In this document: piece by piece, positions 9,390 to 62,776 of the stretch
How positions within the stretch are numbered: the stretch's first letter is position 1
Layout: each line of letters opens with the position of its first letter
Assembly: GCA_965219995.1 (NCBI GenBank)
Contig: CBDCOX010000002.1
Location: 2,172,918-2,236,917 of the forward strand
DNA from: Candidatus Latescibacterota bacterium
Lineage (GTDB): Bacteria > Latescibacterota > UBA2968 > GCA-2709665
Direction of reading: 5' to 3'
Length of the DNA: 64,000 bases
The notes under the pieces: model-generated
Databases searched by the model: none
What the model saw: the letters and a program-made list of their open reading frames with translations, nothing else
What the model was told of the DNA's origin: nothing
Program-made: the position numbers and the translations under genes

Positions 9390-9452
9390 CAGGCAATCAG
9401 GGAACCGAAAGCCCCATGCGGGGCCCGCCGTGAACACTCGACCGGAGCGACC

Positions 9453-10871
9453 ATGCCGGAAGACACCCACAGAACCGACCTGCTCGTAATCGGCGGCGGC
9501 CCCGGCGGCTACGCGGCCGCGTTCAGGTCGGCGGACCTCGGCGTCCCCGTTACCCTGGTGGAGGCCGACGAGCGTCTCGGGGGCACCTGCCTGCTCCGGG
9601 GTTGCATCCCGTCCAAGGCGCTGCTTCACGTCGCGAGTCTGATTTCGGAATCGCGTGAGGCGGCGGCGTGCGGACTGATGTTTGCCGAACCGGAAATCGA
9701 TTTAAACAGGATGCGGTCGTGGAAAGACGGAATTCTCACGAAGCTCTCGCGCGGCCTCGATGCCCTCTGCAAACGCCGCAAGGTCACTCGGATCCGCGGC
9801 CGCGCCGCCTTCGAGTCTTCCAATCGTGTTCAGATTACGGGGAATGACGACGTCTCTCATATTGACTTCGTCCATGCCGTCGTCGCCACGGGATCCCGGC
9901 CGGCGGCGCCTCCGGTCTTCGCCATTGACAGTTCGAAGATCCTGGATTCGGACAAGGCGCTCGAACTGGATGACATTCCGGATCGTCTGCTGGCCGTCGG
10001 CGGCGGCATCATCGGTCTGGAACTGAGCACCGTCTACGCACAACTCGGAAGCCGGGTGACGCTGGTCGAAATCACCGGCGGCCTCCTGCCCGGTGTGGAC
10101 CGGGACCTGGTCAAACCGCTGCAAAAACGCCTCGAAGGCATGTTCGACGGCATCCATTGCAACACTGCCGTGGCCGCCCTGAAAGAAGACGGCAGCGGCG
10201 TAACCGCGAGCTTCGAGGGGGATTGCCGGGACGGGCCACAGACGTTCGACAACATTCTGGTCTCCGCCGGCCGGGTCCCCAACACCGAAAACCTGGGCCT
10301 GGAGCATACCCGGATCGGGCTCTCGGATGCCGGCTTCATTGAGGTCGACGGCCGTATGCGAACGGCCGACAGCCGTATCTTTGCGCTTGGCGACGTGGTG
10401 GACGGCCCCGGTCTGGCCCACAAGGCCGCCCACCAGGGGAAGGTTGCCGCGGAAGTCATCGCGGGGCAACCCGCGGCCTTTGACGCCGTCGTCCCCTCGG
10501 TTGTCTACACGGACCCCGAAATCGCCTGGTGCGGGCTGACCGAAACCCTGGCGCGGGAGCAGGACTGGCCCGTCAAAATCGCCCGCTATCCCTGGGCCGC
10601 TTCGGGCCGGGCCGCCACCCTGGGCCGTACCGAGGGTCTCACGAAACTGATATTCGACCCTGAGACCCGCCGAATCCTGGGGGCGGGAATCGTTGGCCCC
10701 AACGCCGGCGAGCTCATCGCGGAAGCCGTGCTTGGCATCGAGATGGCCGCTGTCGCCGAAGACCTGTCACACACGATCCATCCCCATCCCTCCCTTTCCG
10801 AATCCCTGGGCATCGCAGCTGAAATCCATCTGGGTACCGCAACCGACCTGTATATCCCGAAAAGAAGATAG
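9453..10871 (+). CDS. lpdA: dihydrolipoyl dehydrogenase E3
   Basis: FAD motif VIGGGPGGY, redox disulfide GGTCLLRGCIPSKALL, NAD-binding and dimerisation domains. Confidence 0.9.
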   Translation: MPEDTHRTDLLVIGGGPGGYAAAFRSADLGVPVTLVEADERLGGTCLLRGCIPSKALLHVASLISESREAAACGLMFAEPEIDLNRMRSWKDGILTKLSRGLDALCKRRKVTRIRGRAAFESSNRVQITGNDDVSHIDFVHAVVATGSRPAAPPVFAIDSSKILDSDKALELDDIPDRLLAVGGGIIGLELSTVYAQLGSRVTLVEITGGLLPGVDRDLVKPLQKRLEGMFDGIHCNTAVAALKEDGSGVTASFEGDCRDGPQTFDNILVSAGRVPNTENLGLEHTRIGLSDAGFIEVDGRMRTADSRIFALGDVVDGPGLAHKAAHQGKVAAEVIAGQPAAFDAVVPSVVYTDPEIAWCGLTETLAREQDWPVKIARYPWAASGRAATLGRTEGLTKLIFDPETRRILGAGIVGPNAGELIAEAVLGIEMAAVAEDLSHTIHPHPSLSESLGIAAEIHLGTATDLYIPKRR

Positions 10872-13900: not shown

Positions 13901-15074
13901 TGTCGGCTTCGCCAAACACCCACGCGTGATCACGCAACGGTGAAAAATGCCACCCGGCGGCTGCCATCGAATGCTCCCAGAGCGTGTGGGGATACCCATT
14001 CTGAAAATAGCGGCCCAGACAGTAAAGCGAAACCGCCGACCACTGACCGTGGCGTGATCCAACCATGGATGGTGGTACGTCGTAATCCCATACCCCGTTC
14101 TGTACGTTTTCGACGATTCGCCGTCTGGGGCCCTGGTCCTGCGGGTGGGCGAACTGTCTGGAAAAGGCATTGGTCACCCGCAATCGCTCCGCGTCCGTAA
14201 ATACCGGGCTCTCTTCAATCAGGTCCCAGTAGAGAATCATCATATGCGCGTTGTAGTGATACGGACCGCTGAGCGGCTCGTCCTTGTTTTCGATTCGCTC
14301 GCCGTCGATCGCGGCAATCTCCGATCTCGCCTTCGCATCCGGAAACGCCAGCCGGAGAAACTCCCGCGCATGGTGTTCTCTTCCGGTCATGTAGTACATC
14401 GCCATATGCTTGCTGATGCTGTTCCACCCGAAATAACCCACAGACCGGTATCCGGCCGAGGCCTCCCAGGTTTCGAAGTCCTCTAGCGCTTCGGGCACGT
14501 GCGTCCCTTCTCCAAGCCGGATTTCCATAAGCCGGCCGACCGACAGGCCGGTGGCTCCCCCGGAATCGCCGGCCAGCCTTCGAATAAACACGTCCGCCGC
14601 CTGAGCCACGCCGGCTGCATCGCTCCCGCCAACCGCAATCACGTTGCGGCCGTTTCCGAACGGATTGTGGAGCGATCGCACGACGTAGCCGCCAGGACCC
14701 GGGTACCTCAAGTCCAGCAGCGTGTAATACAGGTCGTACAACGCCGCTATGGTGCGATTCGTGGACCTGTTGCCCAGCACGATCAGGTTTTCCATGATTG
14801 GCACCGAACCGGAGGGCGGCCCATCCCCCGCCACAGGTACTTCCACGCCGGTGCGTGAGAGAATAGCGCGCTGGATACGCAGTGCGGCGGCGTCGTGGAT
14901 TCCGCTTGAAGGGGTCACGATGGTCGCGGCCGCCCGCCCGTTCTCGACCAGTCCGGTCGTCAGGTGAAGGTCTTTCAGGCTGCTGTATACGGGTGGAATC
15001 GACGCCGGGTCCGCGTACAGGGGCGCTGCCGCCACAGGAAGGAGCAGAAGAAGGGCTGTCATGCGGGGGGACAT
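10959..15074 (-). CDS. large secreted protein (~1371 aa) with possible polysaccharide-lyase/heparinase II/III-like region, FG-GAP/VCBS repeats and T9SS type-A C-terminal sorting domain
   Basis: Signal peptide MSPRMTALLLLLPVAAAPLYA (ATG 15074 with AAGGA RBS; ORF open to 15191); DLDGDGKKE/DLDGDGQKE FG-GAP-like repeats; C-terminal ...YALYQNFPNPFNIECQIAY...IYCARL... typical Por secretion CTD. Confidence 0.8.
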   Translation of the reverse strand: MSPRMTALLLLLPVAAAPLYADPASIPPVYSSLKDLHLTTGLVENGRAAATIVTPSSGIHDAAALRIQRAILSRTGVEVPVAGDGPPSGSVPIMENLIVLGNRSTNRTIAALYDLYYTLLDLRYPGPGGYVVRSLHNPFGNGRNVIAVGGSDAAGVAQAADVFIRRLAGDSGGATGLSVGRLMEIRLGEGTHVPEALEDFETWEASAGYRSVGYFGWNSISKHMAMYYMTGREHHAREFLRLAFPDAKARSEIAAIDGERIENKDEPLSGPYHYNAHMMILYWDLIEESPVFTDAERLRVTNAFSRQFAHPQDQGPRRRIVENVQNGVWDYDVPPSMVGSRHGQWSAVSLYCLGRYFQNGYPHTLWEHSMAAAGWHFSPLRDHAWVFGEADNLYWYSTGIAPIFTYMLISGDRAALRNGVLETLLRGQEMLISGREPDWALRYASIGYLHKAAYLTGDGRYLEYARRTGVDLKKFRLGQSFWPGSDMVPVQPTDLAEKWSILRLPEPLWIRRASGLPISDSFQFGSFRSTTDATGDFILIDGLNGASRNPYHSFAVLELRLDGETVLEGYGNQVLTGADGLVEAHSPMDAALRYRDVLGRTAVAVAEVPDAPFCNWRRALVQRVGRYALFVDQLRFRVNSANLEVRTEWTAPGRWHSSSEGGTPHIRTGGTRFGIRASDPVEMTINGRTASLVWTGAVSSGEERAFFSLIAGNGTAGAPVACLRLDPQAAILGLPEPAIAVSGEYSGIRGDVALLAADHLFGKGLKTARLEAVLFSASSPVNLDWDFRSGTAVLSTLEETRVRAAFAEPSTVRMNGVPPSIRANPDSGAVFLVPEGRHEFTGAAPDPDVLSRTVDRLRDLLAEAGAARRREAGIPASSAAPDGPPAPLFLKTGIGGAVTDMITFDAEGRTWVGVGVDKGVHLLTSDGREGRFFGTDGPVRVLRWWDAFQLLLAGCRDEQVIAFDLEGRRRWTFVSEMHPAVFQAGKTYWFKTAPGHEGIHGLHTGIFRNGQSQAFVGSACTLEILNGRGELEERLPVFWGPGTRFALIESPRGGADLLIARQPTDSHALSVVNSRSTHVTRGRFAGVPAGHTYIGGWASMSRKHIFNEDLDGDGQKEVVSEINGTWNRVTVWDERGAALHNANFGPGNRIPAQNMRDLDIGDLDGDGKKEILAATSKGFVVALDARCARVWTRRLHSPPTVLAFLRANDASFVVTGSEDGSILVLDGSGKVAGLGKTTGKPTHIVRTGDGVVVGTDRGEVTGWKIGGRFLREAPAEPGEYALYQNFPNPFNIECQIAYQLPQTGDISLIVYNLLGQRVRVLAEGTRQAGYYQATWDGRDDSGREVSSGIYCARLVAGDDRFTAVRKMVLLK

Positions 15075-15227
15075 TTCCACGATCCTTTTTCGCGCGGCGC
15101 GGGGCGGTCGATGAGCCGCGAAAGCGTTAATATACAGGAATATACCCTGTTTGATGCGGAATGTATAGTCGTACCTGTTCAGTAGTCGCATCGACCAGGA
15201 GCGTGAGCGCTCGTTGATATTTTCGCC

Positions 15228-19548: not shown

Positions 19549-21834
19549 ATGGAAAGAAACCCTTCAATCTGGCTCGCCCTGGCATTTGTCCTGGGTGCCT
19601 GTTCCGGGGAAGAGGCCGGGGTAACGCTATCCGGCGCCGTGGCTCGCCCCGGGAAGTACGCGCACCGGACCGGGTGGGCCGTGGCCGATTACGTAAAGGC
19701 GGCCGGCGGATACACGCGGGAAGCCGTCGTGAACGAAGGAAGGTTGATCCGGGTAATTCGGGACAGCGTGACGAACGAAGAGACGAACCGGTCGTGGTGG
19801 CCGCTGGTATCGTCGCCCCGGGTCGTCGCCGGGGACCTGATTCTCGTCCCGTTGCGGACCTACACGGTGCGGATGGATAGCGTACGGGCGATTGAAGACC
19901 TGTCCATTCAATGGCAGGAAAGAGAATACCGGGTTCCGAGAGGCTGGATGGCAGAAGGTCGGACCAGCGCGGGCGTGATGGTTGTATCGATAATCGGCGT
20001 CGGCACGGTTTTTGGTAACGGGGACGGCGAAGCCATGGGCAGGTTTCAGTACCTCTATCTGCATCTGCATCCCGAAGTGTTTCACGAACTTGCCTTGCCC
20101 GGGGGAAGCCCGGTGAGCAACCGGCTGGTTCTGGAGGACGCCCGCGGAGTCCACCAGAGTGTCTTCCCCCGACTGCGGCATCGCTCCGGCGAGCGGGCCG
20201 AAATGCCGCCGGAGGGGCACATGCGGGTTCTGGCGGGCGTATGGCCGAAGCCCCGAAGCAAGGCGTCGCCCGGTTCCGGCATGCGGAAACGGAAATACAA
20301 GGACGGGCGTGAGTGGACCACGTTTCCCGACGGCAGGCAACGAACGGTGTTCCCGCACGGACGCGTGGAAGTGGAATTTGCCGACGGATCGCGCAAAACA
20401 CACCACCCTGATGGCGGTGTCGAGTCAACGGATGCGGGGGGAAACGTGCGGGTCACCCATCCCGATGGAAGGATCTCAGCAACGTTCGCCGACGGCAACC
20501 GGGAAGAGCGGCTGATCGACGGACGGATCGTGCAACATTTCAAGACCGGAACGCGGCGGACGATTTTTCCGGGCGGCACGGAGAAGACGCAATTTGCGGA
20601 CGGCACCGTGCACGTCAAACGCAGAGACGGAACCGTGGAAATGTCCTTCCCCGAGGGCGCGAGCGAAACGCGGCATGCCGACGGCCGAATCACAGCGGTC
20701 ACCCGCGACGGGCATCGGGTGACGATATTTCCGAACGGCCGGCGGCTGACCCGGGCCGCAGACGGGACGGTGCTCGAGGAGTTCGCGGACGGGAGGCGCG
20801 TGCAGTCGGGCCCGGACGGCGAGCGGGTGGAGGTGTTTATAGACGGGACCCGTCGAACGGCCTTGAAAAACGGCGCTACGGTTATTGAGAAACCCGACGG
20901 CAGCCGGGTCGAGCGCCATGCGGACGGGACGATCATAGAGATTACTCCGGATGGTCGAAGGGTGCAAACCGGCGTCGACGGAATCCGGTTGGAGACGCGT
21001 CCCGATGGGACGGAGATACAGACCGATACGGCAGGGAACCGGCTGGAGACATTTCCGGATGGTCGGCGCACACAGACGGACGTCGAAGGCAATCGCGTTG
21101 AGGAATTTCCGGACGGCATGCGGATCAAGACGTTCGCCAATGCCTACAGGTACTGGGGACCGTTACGGGACGATCTGGCGGCGGTCGACGAAACACCCGG
21201 GCAATTGGCGCCAGGAGGTCGTTTGCGTGTGTCCGGCGCCGTACATTCCGATCCGGAGGACCTGATGGCGGCGGTCTTTCGGCTTCCCGACGGAAGCGTT
21301 TTCGAAATTCCGGCCGAACGGGTAAACGGGCGTTTCTCCTGTGTGTTTCCCGAAAGCGTCTTCACCGCGCCCGGACATTACCGGCTACAGGTTCGGGCGC
21401 AACGTACCGGCGGATCCGTGGTGATGGCCGACCGGGCGCTGGTCGTGGGGAATCCGCCGCCGCTCGAGAAGATGGTGCTCGCGGTCATGCCATTTCGTGG
21501 CGCGGACGATGCCCGAGACCGGTTTAAAAAAATGGTTCACGGGGTACGCAGCCGCCTCGGATTGCCGGAACTGGATACCGACGCCCGGCTGGCCGAAATC
21601 GCCGGCGCGAAAATATGGGACGTCATGGCCAGCGGCGCCTTCGCGTCCGAGCCCGCCCACGCAGGCGAGGAAAGTTTCGCCCGGGGTCCGTCCGTTGAAG
21701 AGGTTTTTACGTTCCTGATGCTGAGCGGGGCTCACAGAAAGGGCATTCTGAATGAGGAATGGACGCGCTGGGGCGTGGCCGTACAGCAGGATGGAGACGA
21801 CGTCCTTGTGGTGATGGCTTTCGATACCGGGTAG
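19549..21834 (+). CDS. lipoprotein with SLBB domain, ~30 tandem TCP10/G-box-like repeats and C-terminal CAP (SCP/YkwD-like) domain
   Basis: Lipobox LGAC after MERNPSIWLALAFV; GAVARPGKYAHRTGWAVADYVKAAGGYT SLBB-like; repeats FPDGxxxxxFADGxxxx...; C-terminal ...HRKGILNEEWTRWGVAVQQDGDDVLVVMAF CAP-like. Confidence 0.75.
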   Translation: MERNPSIWLALAFVLGACSGEEAGVTLSGAVARPGKYAHRTGWAVADYVKAAGGYTREAVVNEGRLIRVIRDSVTNEETNRSWWPLVSSPRVVAGDLILVPLRTYTVRMDSVRAIEDLSIQWQEREYRVPRGWMAEGRTSAGVMVVSIIGVGTVFGNGDGEAMGRFQYLYLHLHPEVFHELALPGGSPVSNRLVLEDARGVHQSVFPRLRHRSGERAEMPPEGHMRVLAGVWPKPRSKASPGSGMRKRKYKDGREWTTFPDGRQRTVFPHGRVEVEFADGSRKTHHPDGGVESTDAGGNVRVTHPDGRISATFADGNREERLIDGRIVQHFKTGTRRTIFPGGTEKTQFADGTVHVKRRDGTVEMSFPEGASETRHADGRITAVTRDGHRVTIFPNGRRLTRAADGTVLEEFADGRRVQSGPDGERVEVFIDGTRRTALKNGATVIEKPDGSRVERHADGTIIEITPDGRRVQTGVDGIRLETRPDGTEIQTDTAGNRLETFPDGRRTQTDVEGNRVEEFPDGMRIKTFANAYRYWGPLRDDLAAVDETPGQLAPGGRLRVSGAVHSDPEDLMAAVFRLPDGSVFEIPAERVNGRFSCVFPESVFTAPGHYRLQVRAQRTGGSVVMADRALVVGNPPPLEKMVLAVMPFRGADDARDRFKKMVHGVRSRLGLPELDTDARLAEIAGAKIWDVMASGAFASEPAHAGEESFARGPSVEEVFTFLMLSGAHRKGILNEEWTRWGVAVQQDGDDVLVVMAFDTG
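20280..21130 (+). repeat. in-frame tandem array of ~27-nt (9-codon) imperfect repeats encoding xDGxxxxxF units
   Basis: Read directly from translation: TFPDGRQRTVFPHGRVEVEFADGSRKTHHPDGG...ETFPDGRRTQTDVEGNRVEEFPDGMRIKTF. Confidence 0.6.
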
Positions 21835-44269: not shown

Positions 44270-47200
44270 TCAGTCGTCGGCCGACTGATGGGTTGCGGCC
44301 TGGCGGGAAAACGCGGCGCTGACGATCCTTTGCAGAACGGCGCGCAGGTCGTCCAGCAGCGTGTAACAAATGGGCACGAGCAGCAGGGTCAGAAACGTGG
44401 ATGCCAGCAACCCGCCCATCAGGGTCCGGCCAAGCGGCGCGTAGGGAATCCCGATGAGATTGCTGTTGCCCAACGCCATTGGCAACAGGCCGCAAACCGT
44501 GGTAAACGTGGTCATCAGGATCGGGCGAAACCGGTTGTGCCCGGCCTCCAGAATAGCCTCGGTCCGGTTCATGCCCTCGTGACGCATTCGGTTGATCATA
44601 TCCACCAGGACAATGGCGTTGTTGACGACGACGCCGATCAGTACAATCATGCCGATGTTGGCCATCATGTCCATTGGCGTGCCGGTCAGATAGAGCGTCC
44701 AGTACACCCCCAGGAACGAAAACGGAATGGAAAACAACACTGAAAACGGTAGAACCACGGACTCGAACAACACCCCCATCAGGAGAAAGACGCACGTTAC
44801 TGCCATCACCACCGCAAAAATCGTCTCGTTGTCCGACTCCCGGAACCTGGCGAAGCGTTCGCCCTTGTTCCACGAATATCCCCGCGGCATGTGGAAACCG
44901 GCCATCGCCCGGTCGATTTCGGCGTAAAGACCCTTCAGATCATCCTTTGTCGTAAACGCCTTCACCGCCAGACGCGTCTTGCCGTCTTCCCTCCGGATTC
45001 TCCCGCGCCCCGGCGTCACCTTGAAAGTGGCCAGTTCGGACAGGGGGATCTCCTCTCCGGACGCCGACCTGAACATGAAACTCTTCAGGTGATGCAGCGT
45101 CTGCCGGTCCGCCTCTTCCAGGTACAGTCGCGTATCCACCTCGCGCTCACCGGACTGGTACCGGGGAAGGCTGACCCCCTGCATCGTGAAGGCCAGGGTC
45201 CGCGCCACGACCTGCGGCGAAATCCCGTAGCGCCTCGCGCGGACTCGATGAATTTGGACCTGCACCTCGTCGGTGGATCGTTCCAGGTCGGAATCCACGT
45301 TCACGACCGACGGAATCTGCCGGAGCCGGCGCTCGACTTCCGTCACGAGGCCGGCCAGCACCTCGGTGTCGTCTCCGTAGAGATAGACCGAAACCGAAGG
45401 ATCCCCGCCGCCGCGGGCGCGGCTCTCCACGCCGATCCGCACCCCCACGTACTTGGGCATGTCCTTCTTCAGATCAGCGATGACCTCCGTACGGGCCATC
45501 GTGTTGTCCACCGGAACGCCAAGACCCGCCCGCAGGTTCTTGTACGCGACGTACCACCACGCCTCATTGGGGTTCGTATCCAGAAAGATCTCAAAATTCC
45601 CACGGGTCTTGCGGAACCAGGACCGGATGGTCCGGATGCCGTAGGCCTCTCGCTTTGAATTCAGAAACTCCTCCACCTCGTTCATCAATTCAAAGGTCTC
45701 GTACGTCGTAAAGTCGCGGGGGGTCCGAATATTGATGTCGATATCGTTGATATTGCCACGAGAGGAATCCGACCGTTTCATTTTGTCCGCCGGAATTGCA
45801 ATGGTCGCAAAAACCGCCAGGAGGATCAATATGGCGTCCCGGCGGTGGCTCAACGCCCAGTTCAGCACCCGCCCGTAGCGCATCCGCGCCCAGCCGATGG
45901 ACTTCGAATCCGGCTTCACCCGGCTGCCCCCGAAACGCACCGAAGCCAGCGGGATGATTAACAACGCCACGAACAACGACCCCACCAGCATCACGATGAC
46001 GGGGACACCCATGCGAGAGAGATAGAACGTCATCCCCACGTTTCCGGTCATCAACATCAACGGCAGAAAGACCACGACCGTGGTCAGCGTGGCCATGGTT
46101 ATCGCCATGGCAACTTCGCTGGCGCCCGCCACGGCGGCAGGCCTGGGGGATTCGCCCTTCTCGCGCCGCCGGTAGATGTTCTCCAGAATCACGACGGCGT
46201 TGTCGACAACCATCCCCACACCCACCATCAAACCCATCATCGTCATGAGATTCAGAGACCACCCGGAAAAATAAAGCACCGTTACGGTTATCATGGCGCA
46301 CAGCGGTATCGACAGCGTGATGATGGCCGTCATACGAAGGACGCGCAGGAAGAACAGAAGAACCAGCGCGGCGAACAATCCGCCCCAGAGGCCCGTATTC
46401 CTTAAATTGGCAACGGATGCCCGGATGAGTTCGCCCTGGTTGAAAAACACATTGAACTGGATCTTGCCTGCCACGGCGGATCCGGTCTCAATCTCCGCGA
46501 GCGCCGCTGAAACACGGTCGCACACCGTGGCGATATCGGCCCCCGACTCGGCCTTGATACCCACGGAAGAAGCCGGTTGGCCGTCGATTCTCTGATACCA
46601 GCTTCGGGCCGGGATATCGTAGACGACGTCGGCGACTTCCCGCAATCTGACGACGCCCTGGCGCGAACTTACAGGGATATTACCGACCTCGTCGAGACTG
46701 CGGTACCGCGCCAGGGAACGGACGTAGAATTTCTTGGTGCCTTCGTTGACGTAACCGCTCTTGAGCGCGAAATTGTCGTTCTGCAGGCTTTGTACCATCT
46801 CATAGATATTCACGCCCCTCGCCATCAGTTGCTCGCGGTTGATTTCAATCATTACCTCTTTGGGGTCGGCGCCCCAGAGTTCCACTCTGGCCACTCCTTC
46901 GATGCGTTCAAGGGGCCGCTGAACGTGCGTTTCCAGGAAACGGTACACGTCCACGATCGTGGAGTCCAGGGCCGCGCCGATCCACATGATGTTCCAGCCC
47001 TCGTCATTATACTTCCAGACGAAGACATTGTCCCGCACCTCCTCAGGGAGTTCCGGCTTGAGCCGGTCCAGTTGATCCCTCAACTGGTTGTACGCCAGGG
47101 TCATGTCGGCATCCTGCTGAAACCGGAGGGGGGCGCCCACGCCGCGGCTGTCCGTGTACGTCCGGACCCGTTCGATACCCTTGATGGTCCGCAGACGCTC

Positions 47201-47428
47201 CTCGAGGGGGCGTGTGATCTGCTGTTCGACCTCCTGAGGCGTGGCGTTCGAGCCGGGATACCGCACGCTCAACCACAGGAAGGGTGGATCGAAGCCGGCC
47301 GGCATCATCTTCACCGCGATCCGTGAATAGGCGACGGCGCCCATCACGAGCAGGGCCACGAGACACACCGTGATTGTTACGGGTCGATTAACGGATATGG
47401 ATGAAAGGAGGGAGGGTCGACTGTTCAT
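44270..47428 (-). CDS. RND-family efflux transporter permease (HAE1/AcrB-like), no adjacent MFP or OMF genes
   Basis: 12-TM RND architecture with two large periplasmic loops over ~1050 aa; start MNSRPSLL with AAGGA RBS (ORF open to 47539). Confidence 0.85.
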   Translation of the reverse strand: MNSRPSLLSSISVNRPVTITVCLVALLVMGAVAYSRIAVKMMPAGFDPPFLWLSVRYPGSNATPQEVEQQITRPLEERLRTIKGIERVRTYTDSRGVGAPLRFQQDADMTLAYNQLRDQLDRLKPELPEEVRDNVFVWKYNDEGWNIMWIGAALDSTIVDVYRFLETHVQRPLERIEGVARVELWGADPKEVMIEINREQLMARGVNIYEMVQSLQNDNFALKSGYVNEGTKKFYVRSLARYRSLDEVGNIPVSSRQGVVRLREVADVVYDIPARSWYQRIDGQPASSVGIKAESGADIATVCDRVSAALAEIETGSAVAGKIQFNVFFNQGELIRASVANLRNTGLWGGLFAALVLLFFLRVLRMTAIITLSIPLCAMITVTVLYFSGWSLNLMTMMGLMVGVGMVVDNAVVILENIYRRREKGESPRPAAVAGASEVAMAITMATLTTVVVFLPLMLMTGNVGMTFYLSRMGVPVIVMLVGSLFVALLIIPLASVRFGGSRVKPDSKSIGWARMRYGRVLNWALSHRRDAILILLAVFATIAIPADKMKRSDSSRGNINDIDINIRTPRDFTTYETFELMNEVEEFLNSKREAYGIRTIRSWFRKTRGNFEIFLDTNPNEAWWYVAYKNLRAGLGVPVDNTMARTEVIADLKKDMPKYVGVRIGVESRARGGGDPSVSVYLYGDDTEVLAGLVTEVERRLRQIPSVVNVDSDLERSTDEVQVQIHRVRARRYGISPQVVARTLAFTMQGVSLPRYQSGEREVDTRLYLEEADRQTLHHLKSFMFRSASGEEIPLSELATFKVTPGRGRIRREDGKTRLAVKAFTTKDDLKGLYAEIDRAMAGFHMPRGYSWNKGERFARFRESDNETIFAVVMAVTCVFLLMGVLFESVVLPFSVLFSIPFSFLGVYWTLYLTGTPMDMMANIGMIVLIGVVVNNAIVLVDMINRMRHEGMNRTEAILEAGHNRFRPILMTTFTTVCGLLPMALGNSNLIGIPYAPLGRTLMGGLLASTFLTLLLVPICYTLLDDLRAVLQRIVSAAFSRQAATHQSADD

Positions 47429-47549
47429 TGAGAAGACATTCCTTCGGTCCTTCGTATACGGTCGATGTAATAGACCCGTGGAATTACGCCCCACATCTCC
47501 TGGCTTACATAGCATCTGGTACACATAGTCCCGCCACATCCTGTGGAGA

Positions 47550-52529: not shown

Positions 52530-53062
52530 CAGTCGACGGCCTTGATAATGCGGATCTTGACCCGGGCGACCCCCTCTTCCACCATGTCCAGGCGACGGGC
52601 CGCACCCAGGGAAAGGTCCAGAATCCGTCCTTCGACAAAGGGTCCCCGGTCGTTCACCTTCACTCTGACGCTCCGTCCGTTTCCAAGATGGGTTACGTGG
52701 ATGACGGTACCGAGCGGAAGTTCCCGATGTGCCGCGGAGAGCCCGTACATATTGTAGATCTCACCGCTGGCGGTGGGACGGCCGTGGAACTTGTGCGCGT
52801 AATACGAGGCAAGGCCGACCTGAAAGGCGTCCTGGGTGGAAATCACGGGAGCGTCGACGGCGGTCTTTTCGGAGTCGGTTCCCGGCGGCGAGGAGCGATA
52901 CCTGGGTCGGGAGAAACAGCCTGAACCAAGGCCGATTGCAAATATCAGGAGCACGTGAACCGCAACGCGGTCAGCCCCGCGGCCCGGTCTCAAACGAACC
53001 CACGAGGTCCGGGATTCGCCCGATCCGCTGGCTGCGGCAGTATTCGGCAAGGCCATCGACAA
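52529..53062 (-). CDS. rlpA: RlpA-like septal ring lytic transglycosylase (DPBB domain) lipoprotein
   Basis: GLASYYAHKFHGRPTASGEIY...GRSVRVKVNDRGPF...LDLSLGAARRL DPBB core; lipobox LGSGC; true start probably internal (~52960) since ORF overlaps pyrD 3' end. Confidence 0.6.
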   Translation of the reverse strand: MSMALPNTAAASGSGESRTSWVRLRPGRGADRVAVHVLLIFAIGLGSGCFSRPRYRSSPPGTDSEKTAVDAPVISTQDAFQVGLASYYAHKFHGRPTASGEIYNMYGLSAAHRELPLGTVIHVTHLGNGRSVRVKVNDRGPFVEGRILDLSLGAARRLDMVEEGVARVKIRIIKAVD

Positions 53063-53894
53063 TCTCCAGGGCAGCCCACGGGTTGATGAAGGTGGTCGTC
53101 CCTACCTGTACGGCGGATGCGCCGACAATCAGAAACTCGATTGCATCTTCAGCCGTCGCAATGCCGCCCATGCCGACGATCGGGATCGAGACCGCATTTG
53201 CGACCCGCCACACCATCGCCAGCGCAACCGGCTTGATGGCGGGCCCGGAAAGACCGCCGGTAACGTTGCCCAGAACCGGACGCCGGGTGCCGACGTCCAC
53301 GGCCAGCCCCAGCAGCGTATTGATCAACGCGATGCTGTCGGCGCCTCCTTCTTCCACGGCCGCGGCCACAGCGGCGACGTCGGTGACGTTGGGCGTGAGC
53401 TTGACGATGACTGGAAGCCTGCATACCTCTTTTACCGCCGCCGTGACACCGTACGCGGCCTCCTCGCGACATCCGAAGAGCTGACCGCCGTCCTTCATAT
53501 TCGGCGACGAGATGTTCAATTCCAGTGCGTCGATGTCCGGTATGTCGTTGAACCGGCGCGCCATTTCGGCGAATTCCGCGTTCGAGGTGCCGGCGATGCT
53601 GACAATCCTCGCCGTGGAAAGCGCCTGCAGGGCCGGGACCTTTTCCGCAATAAACGCGTCGATACCCGGATTCGTCAGGCCGATGGAGTTGAGCATTCCC
53701 GACGGGGTCTCCGCGGTACGGGGGGTGGGGTTGCCCGCGCGGGGACGAGAGGTGATGGTCTTGGTGACCACGCCGCCAACCTGCGCGAAGTCGAACACGC
53801 CCGCGTATTCGGCGCCGTGCCCGATGGTCCCCGAGGCCATCATCACGGGGTTCCTGATGGTCAGGCCGCCTCCGATGTGCGTGGAAAGGTCCAT
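52971..53894 (-). CDS. pyrD: dihydroorotate dehydrogenase, catalytic subunit (class 1B)
   Basis: NPVMMASGTIGHGAEY...NSIGLTNPG... FMN-binding TIM barrel typical PyrD. Confidence 0.85.
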   Translation of the reverse strand: MDLSTHIGGGLTIRNPVMMASGTIGHGAEYAGVFDFAQVGGVVTKTITSRPRAGNPTPRTAETPSGMLNSIGLTNPGIDAFIAEKVPALQALSTARIVSIAGTSNAEFAEMARRFNDIPDIDALELNISSPNMKDGGQLFGCREEAAYGVTAAVKEVCRLPVIVKLTPNVTDVAAVAAAVEEGGADSIALINTLLGLAVDVGTRRPVLGNVTGGLSGPAIKPVALAMVWRVANAVSIPIVGMGGIATAEDAIEFLIVGASAVQVGTTTFINPWAALEIVDGLAEYCRSQRIGRIPDLVGSFETGPRG

Positions 53895-53972: not shown

Positions 53973-54767
53973 CTACCAGACGATGGCATGGGCGTCCACC
54001 ACCGGTCCTTCAATGCAGACCCGTCGATATCGATGATCTTCCCGATCCGCTTCCCGGTATTCCACCACACAGCCCACACAGGCACCGAATCCGCAGGCCA
54101 TATGGTTCTCGAGTGACGCGAAGCAGGGCAGACGGTGCTCGGCAGCGATCCCGGCGACCCGCGCCATCATCGGGTGCGGGCCGCAGGCAAGGATCTGGGT
54201 TTCGCCGGGTCGGACGTGTGCCGGAATCAGGTCCGTTACGGGGCCTCTGTGTCCGAGGCTCCCGTCGTCCGTTGCAAGGCGTCGGCACAGATCGGCGGGA
54301 ATCACACGATCCATTTCGGGCATTCGCGCTTTGCTGGCAGCCCCCATCAGGAAGACCATTTCGGCTCGACGTTCCTTGTAGAACCAGGCCGAAAAGGCAA
54401 GCGGGACCAGACCTACGCCCCCGGCGACCAGTAGGAGCCGGCCCGTATCGGGCGGGACAAACGCCTGGCCCAGCGGGCCGAGCAGATCCAGATACCGACC
54501 GGCCGGGGCCGCGGCCATTCTGCGCGTGCCTTCGCCGATGGCGTCATAGACGATCTCCAGCCATCCCGCTTCGGCATCCACGCGCAGCGCGCTGAACGGG
54601 CGCCGGAGATAGGGTGTCCGGCCGGGGTCGGTAAGGACATGAACAAACTGGGCCGGGCGGCAGGACCGGGCAATTCCCGGGGCGCGCAGGCGCATCAGGT
54701 AGACGTTTCGAGCAATCCGCTCGTTGACGAGGACTTCGGCGTTTTCCTGGAAGAATCGTGAATTCAT
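53973..54767 (-). CDS. pyrK: dihydroorotate dehydrogenase electron-transfer subunit
   Basis: FAD/NAD-binding ferredoxin-reductase fold and C-terminal 2Fe-2S cluster CGFGACVGC. Confidence 0.8.
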   Translation of the reverse strand: MNSRFFQENAEVLVNERIARNVYLMRLRAPGIARSCRPAQFVHVLTDPGRTPYLRRPFSALRVDAEAGWLEIVYDAIGEGTRRMAAAPAGRYLDLLGPLGQAFVPPDTGRLLLVAGGVGLVPLAFSAWFYKERRAEMVFLMGAASKARMPEMDRVIPADLCRRLATDDGSLGHRGPVTDLIPAHVRPGETQILACGPHPMMARVAGIAAEHRLPCFASLENHMACGFGACVGCVVEYREADREDHRYRRVCIEGPVVDAHAIVW

Positions 54768-54833: not shown

Positions 54834-56606
54834 TCATTTCTTTTGCGGACCCCGGGAATCTCCATTGCGTGTTTCGTCTCCCCGGTCTGAAGGCGTCGTT
54901 CCGCCGGCGGCTTCGGCGTCCGAATCGGACTGCGCGACGGCGCCCAGAAAGTCGCCCTTAAGGCTTTTCGACGCGATTTCCGCGAAGTCGGTCTGAGGAT
55001 AACTGTCCATCAGCCGCTGGTAATAGACCCGGGCGGTGTCCGGGTTTTCCAGACGGTTCGCGTAGGTCCAGGCGATGGTATAGAGGGCTTTAGCCGCAAC
55101 GGGGCTGTTCGGGTGATCCGACGAGAGTTGTTTGAGGACCTTCAGGAATCCGGACGGCGGAGCCCCCTCGCTGATCAGCGTTTCGGCCTCGAGAAAACTG
55201 GCTTTCGCCCTGGCGTCTTCTTCCAGCGACTTCGCCAGCCGCTGACGGGCGTTCACCGCGTAGGGATTGACGGGATACGCGTCGATCAGTTGCCGGAACG
55301 TCTTTTCGGCAGCATCCTGGTTTTTCAGGCTGTCCGCGTAAATCAGGCCGATGGCATAGAGTGCCTTTGGCGCCAGTTCGGCATCCAGACTGTCGGCGAT
55401 TCCGTAGGCTCTGCGGTAGGTCGCGAGCGCGGAGTCGGGTTCCGAAAAGTTGAACAGATACATCTCGGCCACATTGAAGAGCGCTTTCAGACCCTTCTTC
55501 TTGCCTTTGGCGGCCGCCTTCTGGTAACGAGCCAGCTTGCCAAGGTCCTTTTCCCGGTCTCGGGCCGCCCTGCCCGCATCGGACCCGGGATTTTCTTTTC
55601 GGGCGCTGGCGAAGAGTTCCTGCGCCTTTTCCAAATTCCGGTGCGTCCGCTGCGCCACCATCGCCAGGCGATAGTAAGCCTCGGCGCTGTACTCGGTCTT
55701 CGGGTTGTCCTTGATGACTTCATTGTAGATCTCATCGGCGGTTTCCTGCCGGCCCATCAGATGATATGCGTGCGCCCGTCTGAGATGCACGTTCGGCTCA
55801 TAGGATCTCAGGCTCTTGATCTTCAGAATGCGGTCGTACTCCGCCAGGACTTCGTCCAGTTTCCCCTGGCGCTCCAGAATTCGCCCGATCTGAAGGCGGG
55901 TCTCGTAATTGACTTTGTTTTTCGGCTTTGATTTAAGAACGCGCCTATACGCCGTAAGGGCTTCTTCGTACTGTTCCAGCCGAAACCTGGCGTTCCCGAT
56001 ACCCTCCCATATTTTCGCGGCGAGTCCTCGAGGCCTGCCCTTGAGCAGTTGTTGATATGCGTCGATGGCGGCGGCGTGATCGCCGGCTTCCGATTCCAGT
56101 TCCGCAAGCGCGAGCCGGGCCTTTCCCGAGAATTGCGGATCACCGCTTTCACCCACCTTCGCCAGCAAGGGCCGCGCTTCTTCGGGCCTTCCGACGGCCC
56201 AGAGCGAAAGCCCCTTCCAGTAGAAGCCTTCGGTAAGCAGCAGGCTCTGAGGAAAATTGTCCTGCAGCTCCTGGAACTTGGTGAGTGCATCCCGGTAGCT
56301 GCCCCGCCAGTAGAAGGCCTTGCCGATGAGCAACAGGCTGTCGTCAACCCACTTGCTTTCAGGATGCCGGTCGAGGACGATGGACGCCTTTCTTATGGCC
56401 CGCATGTAGAAATCGCGGTACCGGAATACCATCTGTCGGCTCTTCTGGCCGCTGGCGGCCACGTTCTCGGCTTCCTCTCTTTTGCGCTCGGCCTCCCGGT
56501 ACTGTTTCCGGGCGTTATAGAATGTGTTGTAATAGACACACCCGGAAATCAGGCTCACGGCGAACAGGACGACGCAGGGGATGAGGATTTTCCGGTTCGA
56601 ATTCAT
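54834..56606 (-). CDS. TPR-repeat lipoprotein (590 aa)
   Basis: Lipoprotein signal [23 protein letters not shown]; >10 TPR repeats; start overlaps carB stop (ATGA). Confidence 0.75.
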   Translation of the reverse strand: MNSNRKILIPCVVLFAVSLISGCVYYNTFYNARKQYREAERKREEAENVAASGQKSRQMVFRYRDFYMRAIRKASIVLDRHPESKWVDDSLLLIGKAFYWRGSYRDALTKFQELQDNFPQSLLLTEGFYWKGLSLWAVGRPEEARPLLAKVGESGDPQFSGKARLALAELESEAGDHAAAIDAYQQLLKGRPRGLAAKIWEGIGNARFRLEQYEEALTAYRRVLKSKPKNKVNYETRLQIGRILERQGKLDEVLAEYDRILKIKSLRSYEPNVHLRRAHAYHLMGRQETADEIYNEVIKDNPKTEYSAEAYYRLAMVAQRTHRNLEKAQELFASARKENPGSDAGRAARDREKDLGKLARYQKAAAKGKKKGLKALFNVAEMYLFNFSEPDSALATYRRAYGIADSLDAELAPKALYAIGLIYADSLKNQDAAEKTFRQLIDAYPVNPYAVNARQRLAKSLEEDARAKASFLEAETLISEGAPPSGFLKVLKQLSSDHPNSPVAAKALYTIAWTYANRLENPDTARVYYQRLMDSYPQTDFAEIASKSLKGDFLGAVAQSDSDAEAAGGTTPSDRGDETRNGDSRGPQKK

Positions 56607-58534
56607 GCGTTTTCACCCGCCTCCTTCCCGTGGAACTCCTGCAGAGAACGAATCCGGACCGCGCCGTTTTTCTTCAGGGACTCGATGCCGGACACCGCGG
56701 CCGAAGCGCCCGCCAGCGTGGTCGTGTACGGGATGCCGTATTGCAGCGTTGCCTGGCGAATCCTGTGATCGTCCGCCTGCGCGGCTTCTCCCGCCGGGGT
56801 GTTGACCATCAGGACGATCGACCTGTTCTTGATGGCGTCCAGAATATTGGGGCGGCCCTGCTGGATCTTGAGGATGGGTTCGGCGAGGATATCGTGCGCC
56901 ATCAGCCGGGCGTGGGTTCCACGGGTGGCGACAATCCGAAACCCGAGTTCCGCCAGCCGCCGGGCAACGGGTATCACGGCATCCTTGTCCCGGTCGTTGA
57001 CCGAGATGAAAACCGCGCCCGACGTGGGAAGCCGTACCCCTGCGCCGAACTGCGCCTTGTGGAAGCTCAGACCGAAGTCCGTATCGATGCCCATGACTTC
57101 GCCGGTGGACTTCATTTCGGGCCCCAGCAGGGTATCCACGCCCGGGAACTTGGCAAACGGCAAAACGGCTTCCTTTACAGCAATGTGATCGAAGACGACT
57201 TCGCCTGTCAACCCCTGTTCCCTGAGGGATCGGCCGACCATGGCCCGCGCCGCCACTTTCGCCAGCGGAATGCCGATCGTCTTCGAGACAAACGGCACGG
57301 TGCGGCTTGCCCGCGGGTTGACTTCGAGAATGTAGACCTGGTTGTCCTGAAGGGCGAACTGCACGTTCATCAACCCCACGACGTTCAGGGCGCCGGCCAG
57401 CGCGTGGGTGTGGGAACGGAGTTCATCGAGGTGTTCCACGGAGATGTCGTAGGGCGGCAGCACGCAGGCGCTGTCGCCGGAATGCACGCCCGCGCTCTCG
57501 ATATGCTGCATGATGCCTCCGATCACAACCGTCGTATCGTCCGCGACGGCGTCCACGTCGAACTCGTGCGCGTCTTCGAGAAAACGGTCGATGAGAATGG
57601 GATGCTCGGGCGAGGCCTGGATTGCCTTTTCCATGTAGCTGAGAAGCGCATTCCGCTCGTAGACGATGACCATGGCGCGCCCGCCGAGGACGTACGAGGG
57701 CCGTACAAGCACGGGATAGCCGATGTCGTCGGCCACGGCAACGGCTTCGTCCACGCTGGTGGCGGTTCCGTTATCGGGCTGCGTGATGCCGAGTTGCCTG
57801 ATCAGAGCGCCGAATCGCTTTCGGTCTTCGGCCAGATCGATGCTGTCCGGAGACGTCCCGATGATGTTGACGCCGCCGCGTTCCAGGTCGCGCGCGAGAT
57901 TCAGGGGAGTTTGCCCGCCAAGCTGCACGATCACGCCGTCGGGCTGTTCCAGATGCGCGATATTGAGCACGTCTTCGGCCGTGAGCGGCTCGAAATAGAG
58001 TTTGTCGGAGGTGTCGTAATCGGTGCTGACGGTTTCGGGGTTCGAGTTGACCATAATGGTCTCATAGCCGTCTTCCTTGAGCGCAAAAGCCGCATGCACG
58101 CAGCAGTAGTCGAACTCGATCCCCTGCCCGATGCGATTCGGGCCGCCGCCCAGGATCATGACTTTGGGCCGATCCGATCGCGTGGCCTCGTTTTCGTCTT
58201 CATACGTGGAATAGTGGTACGGCGTATACGCCTCGAACTCGGCGGCGCACGTATCGATGGTCTTGTAGACCGCGTGTATATTCATTTCCTTTCGGAGGGC
58301 CCTGACGGTCCATTCGCTGGTCGTCCACAGGTGGGCGAGCTGACGGTCGCTGAACCCGTATCGCTTGGCCTTGATCAGGTCGGCGCGATCCACACGGGTC
58401 CGCAGATCTTCGAGCGTTCGTTGTTTCCGGTGCATAGCGGCTGCCGGACTCGTTCGGGCGCCTGGAATCACGCGACGAGGTCCGCGAGCTCCTTTTCGTA
58501 GTCGGTGATCTGACGCAGGTTCTCGAGAAACCAC
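56603..58534 (-). CDS. carB: carbamoyl-phosphate synthase large subunit, C-terminal segment (frame-shifted relative to N-terminal segment)
   Basis: Homology to CarB second half begins at ...[19 protein letters not shown]...[14 protein letters not shown]...; first plausible ATG at 58435 ([11 protein letters not shown]); ORF frame open to 58534. Confidence 0.8.
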
Positions 58535-59916
58535 GGGTCGATTCCAGTCAGTTCGTAAAGCTCGGCCAGGGGCCAGTCCGCTTCCAGCGCGGCCTTGAGA
58601 TAGAAGATTCTCTGGGAATTGGGCACCCGCAGCCGGTGCTCGACCACGGCACGGTCCAGGGCGGGAATGGCCAGGTCCTTGCCGTCGGCCCCGAAGCCCC
58701 CGCGGCCGATTTCCAGGGACCGCAGTCCCTTCTGAAAGGCCTCTTTGAACGTCCGTCCGATGGCCATCGTTTCACCCACGGACTTCATCTGAGTCCCGAG
58801 GAGGTCTTCGGTCTGCGGGAACTTTTCGAAGGTCCACCGCGGAATCTTGACCACGCAGTAGTCTATGGTCGGCTCGAAAGAGGCCGGGGTTTCCCTGGTA
58901 ATGTCGTTCCGGATTTCGTCCAGTGTGTATCCAACGGCGAGTTTGGCCGCGATCTTCGCAATGGGAAATCCGGTGGCTTTCGAAGCCAGTGCGGAACTCC
59001 GGGAGACCCTGGGGTTCATTTCGATGATGACGATACGTCCGTCCCGAGGATTCAGTGCGAACTGAATATTGGACCCCCCCGTCTCCACGCCGATTTCCCG
59101 AATAACGGCGATAGACGCGTCACGCATGGCCTGGTACTCTTTGTCGGTCAGGGTCTGTGCGGGCGCCACGGTAATGGAATCGCCGGTATGAATTCCCATG
59201 GGGTCGAAATTCTCGATCGAACAGATAATGACCACGTTGTCTTTCAGATCGCGCATGACTTCCAGTTCGAACTCCTTCCACCCGATGATCGATTCTTCGA
59301 CCAGGATTTCGGTGGTGGGCGAGAGCTCCAGTCCGCGACCCGCGAGGTGTTCGTACTCTTCCGCATTATAGGCCGTGCCGCCGCCGGTGCCTCCTAGCGT
59401 GTAAGAGGGACGGATGATGGCGGGATAGCCTATTTCGGCAATCACGTCCCGGGCTTCTTCCGCACTGTGCGCAAACCTCCCCTTCGGAAACTCGACGCCG
59501 ATCCCGGCCATCGCGGCCTGGAATCGCTCCCTGTTCTCGGCCTTTTCGATGGCTTCGGCATTCGCGCCGATCATCTCTACATTGAATTCTTCCAGAACGC
59601 CCCCGTTGTAGAGATCCATGGCCACATTCAGGCCGGTCTGCCCGCCGAGTGTTGGAAGAAGCGCGTCCGGGCGCTCACGTTCGATAATGGCGGCACACAC
59701 TTCGGGCGCAACCGGTTCCACGTAGGTCCGGTCCGCCATTTCCGGATCGGTCATGATCGTGGCCGGATTGCTGTTCAACAGAACGACCGTGTATCCCTCT
59801 TCCTTGAGGGCTTTGCACGCCTGGGCGCCGGAATAGTCGAACTCGCACGCCTGGCCGATGACGATCGGCCCGGAACCGATGAGCATGATTTTCCGAATGT
59901 CGTTACGCCTGGGCAT
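58468..59916 (-). CDS. carB: carbamoyl-phosphate synthase large subunit, N-terminal segment
   Basis: [42 protein letters not shown]... near-identical to CarB N-terminus; ends with in-frame TGA inside the oligomerisation domain. Confidence 0.85.
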
Positions 59917-60008: not shown

Positions 60009-60536
60009 CTAGACATTTTGCAACAGAACCAGGTAGACCAGCAGAAGGATCAGGAGGAGCGTAACGGCAAAGCAGGTTTTCAGGAAGAGATCCTTCGCCC
60101 TGTTCCGGGGTGGGTGTTCGCCAATGGGCAGAGACGAGGCGGACGGTTTCGGGAGCGACCCCGAAAACCGCTCCTGTTCGATAAGCTGCTCCAGTTTTGG
60201 ATCGCACTCTCTGATGACCCGGAGGATCAGACGCTTGTTGCGGGCGGCCCGTTCGGCGTACCGCCCCCGGCGCGACGTGCGGGTTTCCGCATTGGGTATG
60301 AGAAGATCCGCGTCTTCCCTTGATCCCGAAGCGTCTTCGACCAGGCTGAGCGCACGCGCTCTGGCCAGCTGTTCCGTGAGTCTGCGGGTCTGTTTCCTGT
60401 CGTGGACGTTTTCCCGGATCACCCTTCCGCAGATGCCCACAAAGCGTTCCATATCCGCCCTGATTTCGCCTTCCGTGAGACCGGCGAGATAGGATTCTTC
60501 GATCATTTCGTCGATGCTGTCGCGAATGTCCGGCAT
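60009..60536 (-). CDS. hypothetical tail-anchored membrane protein (175 aa)
   Basis: Start MPDIRDSIDEMIEE 12 nt downstream of nnr stop; C-terminal TM FAVTLLLILLLVYLVLL; ORF extension to 60716 overlaps nnr. Confidence 0.4.
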   Translation of the reverse strand: MPDIRDSIDEMIEESYLAGLTEGEIRADMERFVGICGRVIRENVHDRKQTRRLTEQLARARALSLVEDASGSREDADLLIPNAETRTSRRGRYAERAARNKRLILRVIRECDPKLEQLIEQERFSGSLPKPSASSLPIGEHPPRNRAKDLFLKTCFAVTLLLILLLVYLVLLQNV

Positions 60537-60547
60537 TCGTCTGATTC

Positions 60548-62116
60548 TCAGTTTGGCGTGTGAAATCGTATGTACCGGTTCCGGTCCTCGCCTGTTTCGA
60601 TCACGCGGCGTGCGCCAGGGAGCGCCGAAGCGACGTCGCCCGCGATCATCCCGGCCTCGCCGGTGCGTTCCGCGCACAGGTCCCCGGCCAAACCATGGTA
60701 GTAGACGCCCAGGCATCCCGCCGTTTCGGTGTCGGCGCCCTGCGCGATCAGGGCCGCGAGAATCCCTGTGAGTACGTCTCCGGTGCCGCCCGAGGCCATG
60801 CCGGCGTTGCCGCTGGGATTGACGTACGCGCGGCCGTTCGGCGCAGCCACGACGGTTGGGGCGCCTTTGAGGATGACAGTGACGCCGGCCGCTCGAGCCA
60901 GCGTCCGCGCCGAACCGATGGGATCGGAACGAATGGCTTCGCTGTCAAGACCGGTGAGCCGGGCGAATTCCCCCGGGTGTGGCGTGACGACGGTTGGCGC
61001 AGCCCGATTTTCGAGAACTTCCGGTGCTCCGGCGAGCGCGTTGATGCCGTCGGCGTCCAGAACGAGCGGCGCTTTGATATCCTCAACGATCCGGCGCACC
61101 AGTTGTACGGTTTCGCGATGGGTGCCAAGGCCCGGCCCGAGCGCGACACAGTCGGCCTCCGCAACCAGTCTCCGGACGTCCCCGCGGGCGCGAAGGGCGA
61201 GGCAGCGGGGTTTTCGGACCTCGGGAAGCGGATGGGTCATTGCCTCCGTGAGCTTGACCTCGAGAATATCGTTCAGGCTCTCCGGAATGCCCACCCGAAC
61301 CAGCCCGGCGCCGCTCCTGAGCGCCCCCTGCGCCGATAACGCCGCAGCACCCGTGAGACCGGAAGAGCCGGCCAGAATGACGACCCGGCCGCAGTCACCC
61401 TTGTGGGCGTCGGGCCGTCTTCGGGGCAGCAGGGGCGCGCCCCCGTGCGCGGCGATGAGCCGGACGTTGACCTTCTCGGCGTTTACGGCCGCCTTCGGCA
61501 GACCGATGTCCGTACAGTAAAGGGTTCCGCAGAGGGACCGGCCCGGGTAGCGGAACTGCCCGATCTTGGGCAGACCGAAAGTCACCGTGCGGGATGCCGC
61601 GGCGCAGGGGCCCGCGACACGGCCAGTGTCGGCGTCCAGGCCCGACGGGACGTCGACGGCCAGGACCGGACAGGCTGCATCCCGAAGCGTTTCGATTGCG
61701 CCCGCAACGACTCCACGGGGGCCGCCGCGAATCCCCGTTCCGAGCAGGGCGTCTACGGCCGAAGACGCGCCGGAAAGCGCGGACCGGACTCGCACAAGAC
61801 CATCAGATTCCGGGATTTCGTGGATCTCAAGGCCGTTTTTCCGGGCCCTGTCCAGGTGTTGGCGCGCATCGCCCACAACCTGGTCGTCCGCGGCCAGCAG
61901 AAAAGCGGAAACCGACGCGCCGGCAGAGGCGGCGATGTCCGCGATCACAAATCCGTCCCCGCCGTTGTTGCCTTTCCCGCAGAGTACAACGATCTTTTTA
62001 CCCGGAAAACCGCCGACGAGGTCGTTCAGCACCCGGGCGCCCCCACGACCTGCGGACGCCATCAATTCCATACCGGCAACCCCGCGCTCGATGGCTCCGC
62101 GGTCGATGCGAGCCAT
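60548..62116 (-). CDS. nnr: bifunctional NAD(P)H-hydrate repair enzyme Nnr (YjeF N- and C-terminal domains)
   Basis: YjeF_N GKGNNGGDGFV and C-terminal carbohydrate-kinase-like GNAGMASGGTGDVLTG; start at MARIDRGAIE (ATG 62116) by alignment to Nnr N-termini; ORF open to 62374. Confidence 0.75.
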   Translation of the reverse strand: MARIDRGAIERGVAGMELMASAGRGGARVLNDLVGGFPGKKIVVLCGKGNNGGDGFVIADIAASAGASVSAFLLAADDQVVGDARQHLDRARKNGLEIHEIPESDGLVRVRSALSGASSAVDALLGTGIRGGPRGVVAGAIETLRDAACPVLAVDVPSGLDADTGRVAGPCAAASRTVTFGLPKIGQFRYPGRSLCGTLYCTDIGLPKAAVNAEKVNVRLIAAHGGAPLLPRRRPDAHKGDCGRVVILAGSSGLTGAAALSAQGALRSGAGLVRVGIPESLNDILEVKLTEAMTHPLPEVRKPRCLALRARGDVRRLVAEADCVALGPGLGTHRETVQLVRRIVEDIKAPLVLDADGINALAGAPEVLENRAAPTVVTPHPGEFARLTGLDSEAIRSDPIGSARTLARAAGVTVILKGAPTVVAAPNGRAYVNPSGNAGMASGGTGDVLTGILAALIAQGADTETAGCLGVYYHGLAGDLCAERTGEAGMIAGDVASALPGARRVIETGEDRNRYIRFHTPN

Positions 62117-62379
62117 CTGCGCGCCGGTTACGAGCCTGGCATGGACCTGGGGCACCGGGTCTCCTCGAGGGTGCTCATTATGGCAGGGAAAATCGATGAA
62201 AACCGTCGTTGATTCCCTGCCAATTCCGAACGCCTCAAACTCGCCTAAAAATACAGGAATTGGAAGGGCGGCGCAACCCCAAACTTGTATCGCGGAAACC
62301 GGCGAAGACGAACGATCAGAGGCGTCGAAACCGCGCGGTCCGGACGGTGGGGCTCGACCCGTTTCGAGAGACAAATCGC

Positions 62380-62453: not shown

Positions 62454-62542
62454 GGTGGGGTGACGGAGTGGTCGAACGTGGCGGTCTTGAAAACCGTTGA
62501 TCCTTACCGGATCCGTGGGTTCGAATCCCACCCCCACCGCCA
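62454..62542 (+). tRNA. tRNA-Ser (anticodon TGA)
   Basis: Acceptor GGTGGGG/CCCCACC, anticodon loop CTTGAAA, long variable arm, T-loop GTGGGTTCGAATCCCAC, discriminator G, encoded CCA. Confidence 0.85.

Positions 62543-62683: not shown

Positions 62684-62776
<93 letters not shown>

Follow-up and report, generated by a model that had tools for sequence, protein, structure and literature searches.

A carB gene divided within its oligomerisation domain in an uncultured bacterial clade, probably through a single ancestral fission

Results

Two adjacent reading frames together encode a complete CarB

We analyzed a 64,000-nucleotide stretch (hereafter, the window) of contig CBDCOX010000002.1 from a Candidatus Latescibacterota bacterium (assembly GCA_965219995.1), in which carB, which encodes the carbamoyl-phosphate synthase (CPS) large subunit, occupies two adjacent open reading frames (ORFs). 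All coordinates are those of the window, and the two carB ORFs and the genes downstream of them lie on its minus strand. From the ORF list, Pfam matches and alignment to Escherichia coli CarB, the first ORF, carB-N (58468..59916), encodes 482 aa and ends at a TGA stop codon (58470-58468), while the second, carB-C (56603..58435), encodes 610 aa from an ATG (58435-58433) to a stop codon of its own. Here and below, a spacer is the distance from the stop codon to the homologous start codon, and frame is given relative to carB-N. In the window the spacer is 32 nt (58436..58467) and carB-C lies in frame +2, so that where a single polypeptide of ~1060-1075 aa would have run on there is instead a stop codon, followed by 32 nt and a change of frame. 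The carB-C frame is already open from a GTG at 58534, with its first ATG at 58435. These positions are exactly those of the initial annotation, which had an N-terminal CarB ORF stopping at the TGA at 58468 and a second frame open from 58534 with an ATG about 30 nt downstream of the stop.

The two ORFs divide the domains of CarB between them. carB-N contains a pre-ATP-grasp and an ATP-grasp domain, which form the carboxyphosphate-synthetic unit, followed by the first half of the oligomerisation domain; carB-C contains the second half of that domain, the carbamoyl-phosphate-synthetic unit, and the MGS-like allosteric domain. In Pfam searches, CPSase_L_D2 (PF02786) matched the N-part at 2e-70 and the C-part at 4e-35, and the pre-ATP-grasp model PF25596 matched them at 1e-46 and 1e-50, giving two tandem synthetase units, while PF02142 (MGS-like) matched C-part residues 487-572. 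Both halves exceeded the cut-off (599 bits) of the NCBIfam equivalog NF003671 (1058 positions), the N-part covering positions 1-474 with 828 bits and the C-part positions 477-1057 with 862 bits. They scored below the cut-off of TIGR01369 (771 and 745 bits against 1027), as half a protein would be expected to. Aligned to E. coli CarB (PDB 1BXR), the N-part covered residues 1-478 and the C-part, from its own residue 18, residues 486-1070 (E < 1e-260 for each). Domain content and order are the same as in E. coli CarB (PDB 1BXR/1JDB; NF003671), with two chains here in place of one. We conclude that the halves jointly hold every part of CarB and that nothing is missing.

The cut itself falls inside the oligomerisation domain, which spans residues 401-552 of E. 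coli CarB (PMC6245113). The PF02787 oligomerisation model (80 positions) is divided at the junction, the N-part matching positions 2-53 and the C-part positions 50-80. Correspondingly, the portion on carB-N (58471..58710, residues ~403-482) aligned to E. coli residues 401-481 and the portion on carB-C (58181..58435, residues 1 to ~85) to residues 486-552, placing the cut at approximately residues 481-485, in the middle of the domain and in a loop of variable length. Tiling and alignment thus bear out an earlier claim that the break is inside this domain. A companion claim, that it lies away from the boundary between CarB's homologous halves, holds against the E. coli domain map and against the Aquifex division between CPS.A and CPS.B described in PMC6022934.

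A search for a second carB copy had also been proposed, and none was found in the 64-kb window by Pfam and sequence searches. The 1089-aa ORF at 44270-47539, considered as a candidate, is an AcrB-type transporter by Pfam.

A monophyletic clade with intact sisters carries the split

Whether orthologues share the identical split had been named as the test of a genuine split gene, and dozens of diverged relatives do. A search with the N-part returned at least 30 clusters (90% identity) of 472-498 aa that were 79-98% identical to the query, and all matches at 75% identity or below were at least 704 aa long. Among the best 120 matches to the C-part, 106 clusters were 603-623 aa long with 77-94% identity; the remaining 14 were 1059-1068 aa long with 63-68% identity. 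Long-read contigs of 8.08, 8.43, 5.94, and 4.29 Mb carry the N- and C-halves side by side, and the closed genomes of the split clade are long-read genomes of 4-8 Mb. The column at which the N-part stops was identical in 28 of 31 sequences and at most two residues off in two more, with one gene call extending 14 residues further, and the tails leading up to this column differ in sequence (...LADLVA, ...LAGLMAP, ...LTSLMS, ...LAALVD). On the other side of the junction, the start methionine and head of carB-C were conserved in 27 sequences. In a contig scan with the whole N-part, whose patterns included universal CarB motifs, L003 was the only member of the split clade among the 80 loci listed, and the remaining loci served as unsplit outgroups.

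A neighbor-joining tree built from 117 sequences of the N-part region grouped the 37 split tips as one clade in 100 of 100 bootstraps, with no unsplit sequence inside, and the C-part tree was congruent with it. In the window, carB is followed by genes for a TPR protein (54834-56606), PyrK (53973-54767) and PyrD (52971-53894), identified by Pfam; the two pyr genes had been recognized from the outset as adjoining carB. Upstream lie yjeF/nnr (60548-62374, minus strand; Pfam) and a small conserved protein gene without a Pfam match (60009-60716, minus strand), recognized by synteny. The order carB - TPR - pyrK - pyrD is conserved in the split clade. The two nearest outgroups carry an intact carB, of 1063 aa on a 4.2-Mb contig in L094, and in L004, which is labeled Candidatus Latescibacterota; both keep the order yjeF - small ORF - carB - TPR, and L094 also has pyrK and pyrD downstream. 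In a metagenome-assembled genome (MAG) labeled Gemmatimonadales (L016), carB is likewise intact and lies in another gene context. NCBI labels on split members or their neighboring genes read Gemmatimonadota, Gemmatimonadetes, or Candidatus Latescibacteria. Given the monophyly of the split and the presence of intact sisters in the same neighborhood, a single ancestral fission in situ is the simplest history.

Could the two products have become functionally independent, each acting alone, forming a homodimer with CarA, or, for one of them, serving a new role? There is a precedent for a synthetase of such reduced size in the 41-kDa single-unit CPS of Methanobrevibacter smithii, but in the split clade the two genes are always adjacent and in the same order, they evolve at similar rates, and their trees agree. 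Moreover, each carries half of a small helical domain that is incomplete alone. We consider functional independence improbable.

The junction has the properties of an intergenic region

Between the halves, the relatives vary freely. From the 32 nt (TGA, frame +2) of the window, the spacer changes to 35 nt (TGA, +2) in L003, 53 nt (TAA, +2) in L001, 125 nt (TGA, +2) in L091, 34-37 nt (TGA, +1) in L092, 7 nt (TAG, +1) in L002, and 2 nt (TAA, +2) in the L083 group. No alignment among the spacers is possible, and several contain stop codons in the frame of the C-part. No RNA structure was shared among the five spacers that were folded, the window spacer giving z = +0.28. The only significant hairpin among the five was in L001, from an 8-Mb genome; it is a perfect hairpin, GGGCACGG-CAUG-CCGUGCCC (L001:7453-7472, z = -2.2), without a U-tract, and the other spacers lack it.

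The head of the C-part, by contrast, is conserved. An alignment of 27 C-parts gave the consensus M-x-x-KQHTLxDLRxRIxRxDLLKAK, and the 17-residue conserved N-terminal head occupies 58385..58435 in the window. Compared with E. coli CarB and the unsplit CarBs of L094, L004, L016, L006, and L010, the split CarBs have ~12-14 additional residues at the junction, all of them on the C-part head and without counterpart in the unsplit proteins. In the same alignment, the junction loop is already variable in length among unsplit CarBs.

These features bear on programmed recoding, in which a ribosomal frameshift, a bypass, or read-through of the stop would yield one full-length CarB chain. The ORFs are adjacent on the same strand, and the second frame of the window, like that of L003, runs open through the stop, as recoding would need. 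However, the downstream frame is +1 or +2 depending on the relative, spacers of 2-125 nt that cannot be aligned are combined with all three stop codons, the relatives showed neither a conserved slippery site nor a conserved RNA structure, several spacers hold stops in the C-part frame, and it is the methionine start and head of the C-part that are conserved. Freely varying spacers next to a conserved C-part head are the signature of an ordinary intergenic region rather than of a programmed frameshift or read-through, and we regard recoding as very unlikely.

The split is neither an assembly error nor a decayed gene

The initial annotation had raised a single-base indel or sequencing error in the window as one explanation. 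Such frame changes do occur in MAG assemblies, and two long-read MAG outgroups, L077 and L046, provide examples in which homology crosses from one frame to another directly, without a stop, spacer, or start. The carB frame changes in these proteobacteria-labeled MAGs (L077:6330-6600 and L046:7470-7490) look like indel errors; in L077 the frame changes twice within ~40 nt. In the split clade, by contrast, a stop, a spacer, and a conserved start recur together. One C-part was present on 11 contigs, and the eight places shown came from different samples and assemblers, with both long and short reads, all reading TAAccATG. Nor would any single indel restore a frame matching unsplit CarB, given the extra junction residues and the noncoding spacer. 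Because the split is found in diverged relatives and in independent long- and short-read assemblies, we exclude sequencing or assembly error; as a cause of the break in the window, it retains a negligible chance.

We then estimated the ratio of nonsynonymous to synonymous substitution rates (dN/dS) by the Nei-Gojobori method on codon alignments. The N-part gave values of 0.035-0.10, the C-part 0.047-0.12, and the two oligomerisation-domain fragments 0.05-0.25 (0.05-0.18 for the carB-C fragment), with synonymous sites near or at saturation between sublineages. Both halves are thus under strong purifying selection, and neither is a pseudogene. Recent pseudogenisation, leaving an organism that is auxotrophic or uses another copy, had been suggested by the in-frame stop and frame change and would fit a window that shows neither carA nor a second carB, but it is refuted by a monophyletic split that was already present in the ancestor of a clade whose N-parts fall to 77% identity, by dN/dS of 0.04-0.12 on both halves in place of relaxed selection, and by catalytic and allosteric domains that are all intact, with no sporadic disabling mutations or patchy distribution observed, so that we give it next to no weight.

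Expression and gene neighborhood

A scan of the minus strand found no promoter- or terminator-like site in the window spacer. At its other end, the TGA stop of carB-C overlaps the ATG of the TPR gene (ATGA, 56603..56606), and a Shine-Dalgarno sequence, GGAAGGAGG, lies just upstream of the TPR gene start. The lack of a promoter or terminator in the spacer together with the ATGA overlap makes one transcript probable, on which carB-N, carB-C, the TPR gene, pyrK, and pyrD would be co-transcribed.

For carB-C, translation in the window would most likely begin at the conserved ATG at 58435. A candidate alternative is a GTG (58469..58471) that overlaps the carB-N stop as GTGA and is in frame with carB-C; it would add ~12-13 codons. 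The GTGA arrangement also occurs in L003, and the added peptide is not conserved (one of the pair being VNFKTASQESDSR), and we consider this start less likely. Gene callers give both 610-aa and 621-aa versions of the C-part in close relatives. As for the suggestion of a genuine, translationally coupled split gene, the split is genuine, and coupling finds partial support, from one sublineage in which stop and start read TAAccATG. In the window, coupling would have to contend with a 32-nt spacer in which no clear Shine-Dalgarno sequence precedes the ATG at 58435, or else make use of the alternative GTGA overlap.

The TPR protein is a constant and unexpected member of the pyrimidine cluster: it always lies between carB and pyrK, and a TonB_C domain is present in most of the relatives examined. 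The small ORF between yjeF and carB is found in most of the split clade, in L004, and in L094, and is absent from the L083 group; as the longest ORF it would encode 235 aa in the window, against 164-177 aa called in relatives. Similarly, the longest ORF for yjeF/nnr is 608 aa against 521-537 aa called in relatives, and the TTG at 62374 is probably ~70-85 codons upstream of its true start. The opposite strand just upstream of yjeF carries two tRNA-Ser genes, with anticodons TGA (62454-62542) and GCT (62684-62776).

Elsewhere in the window, two large and unusual proteins are encoded, one of 761 aa (19549-21831, plus strand) with Tcp10_C-type repeats (6e-36) and one of 1410 aa (10962-15191, minus strand) with a beta-propeller and a C-terminal FlgD_ig domain. 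At 1224-10868 (plus strand), a pyruvate:ferredoxin oxidoreductase-like pair adjoins a complete pyruvate dehydrogenase E1-E2-E3 set.

Discussion

We conclude, with a probability of roughly 0.88, that carB in this bacterium is genuinely encoded as two genes, the outcome of one ancestral fission in situ, whose products would assemble into one large subunit. According to this model, the halves would be translated separately, with stop-start coupling in some relatives, and the 482-aa and 610-aa chains would associate noncovalently, rebuilding the oligomerisation domain from two helical fragments and bringing back the pseudo-twofold interface between the synthetase units. Once assembled, this large subunit would bind CarA, encoded elsewhere, to give an active glutamine-dependent CPS. 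The ~13 extra residues at the conserved head of CarB-C probably provide further contacts in place of the covalent link that was lost.

Several points weigh against this conclusion. Co-transcription, the start codon, and the complex itself are all deduced from sequence, and the start that we favor is the one that lacks a clear Shine-Dalgarno sequence. A search of the 64-kb window with a carA query found no carA. These genomes may also carry a second, divergent carB at another site, as shared contigs were compared among the best 120 matches only. Finally, AlphaFold2 models of the separate halves, built from shallow alignments of the clade alone, were poor (mean pLDDT, the predicted local distance difference test score, ~50), and we restricted their use to the helices beside the junction. 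In these models, a long helix (residues 461-481, local pLDDT 52-84) closes the N-part, and the C-part has short helices at residues 8-14 and 17-25, weakly suggesting that the cut falls between helices.

Two-gene large subunits have been described before. [quoted passage not shown] The Aquifex cut is between the homologous halves (PMC6022934), at approximately E. coli residue 553, leaving the whole oligomerisation domain on CPS.A, whereas the cut described here is ~70 residues earlier, inside the 401-552 domain and away from that boundary. The lineage studied here is, unlike Aquifex, not known to be thermophilic. The CPS.A and CPS.B genes (557 and 537 aa) are also unlinked in Aquifex, while the genes here are adjacent and probably co-transcribed. 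Among archaea, Methanocaldococcus jannaschii has a two-gene CarB in which MJ1378 and MJ1381 encode the N- and C-terminal sections (~482 and 618 aa) and are separated by other genes. With sections of these lengths, its cut may fall in the same loop as here; if the sites do coincide, convergent fission at a permissive loop would be the explanation and not shared ancestry. In our literature search we came across no account of a split carB in Gemmatimonadota or Latescibacterota, nor any statement of where the M. jannaschii CarB is broken. The names 'carB1/carB2' in Francisella, which we considered as a possible split carB, refer to transposon alleles.

A similar case outside of CPS is pheT of Altiarchaeales, in which a lineage-defining fission occurred at a poorly conserved, insertion-prone position (PMC4975002). 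As here, a housekeeping gene is split throughout an uncultured clade and the split is supported by several assemblers, but the pheT halves are at nonadjacent loci (PMC4975002) and the carB halves are adjacent.

The same loop may have been cut more than once. A search of a library of 50%-identity representatives returned P0440 (L095:182-1972), a 490-aa CarB N-part that ends at exactly the column of the split clade and is 61-65% identical to all other sampled CarBs; it comes from an unrelated lineage and lies on a singleton metagenome contig of 1,972 bp. No C-part was found in the 318 nt downstream, where there are inverted repeats. P0440 may reflect a separate fission event in this loop, or its gene may have been cut short by a repeat element. 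It is tempting to propose that the loop at approximately E. coli residues 479-485 is a recurrent, permissive fission point, used in this clade, in P0440, and possibly in Methanocaldococcus, and that the C-part head evolved as a docking element; we hold this as a speculation with odds clearly against it. If it were true, the split would be a clean rare-genomic-change marker for a deep uncultured lineage of the FCB group and would offer a ready-made site for splitting CPS.

The present data do not overturn the current understanding of CPS, as split CPS genes are already known. What the clade adds is a clean gene fission in situ with identified intact sisters, and hence a usable rare genomic change. 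In addition, constraint persists in a CarB that is cut inside the oligomerisation domain, which points to a position where a split is tolerated and agrees with the report that oligomerisation itself does not affect regulation (PMC6245113). The split also has consequences for how the lineage is annotated. In the matches listed, CarB halves of the split clade never had an NCBI nr source, while YjeF of the same 50,507-bp contig is in nr, a pattern that would fit pseudogene calls on this clade's carB in NCBI annotation. Likewise, for the 50,507-bp and a 227,973-bp contig, YjeF is in NCBI nr and the CarB halves are ENA gene calls only or are absent among the matches listed. Pipelines that call a frame-broken carB a pseudogene would score an abundant uncultured lineage as deficient in arginine and pyrimidine synthesis.

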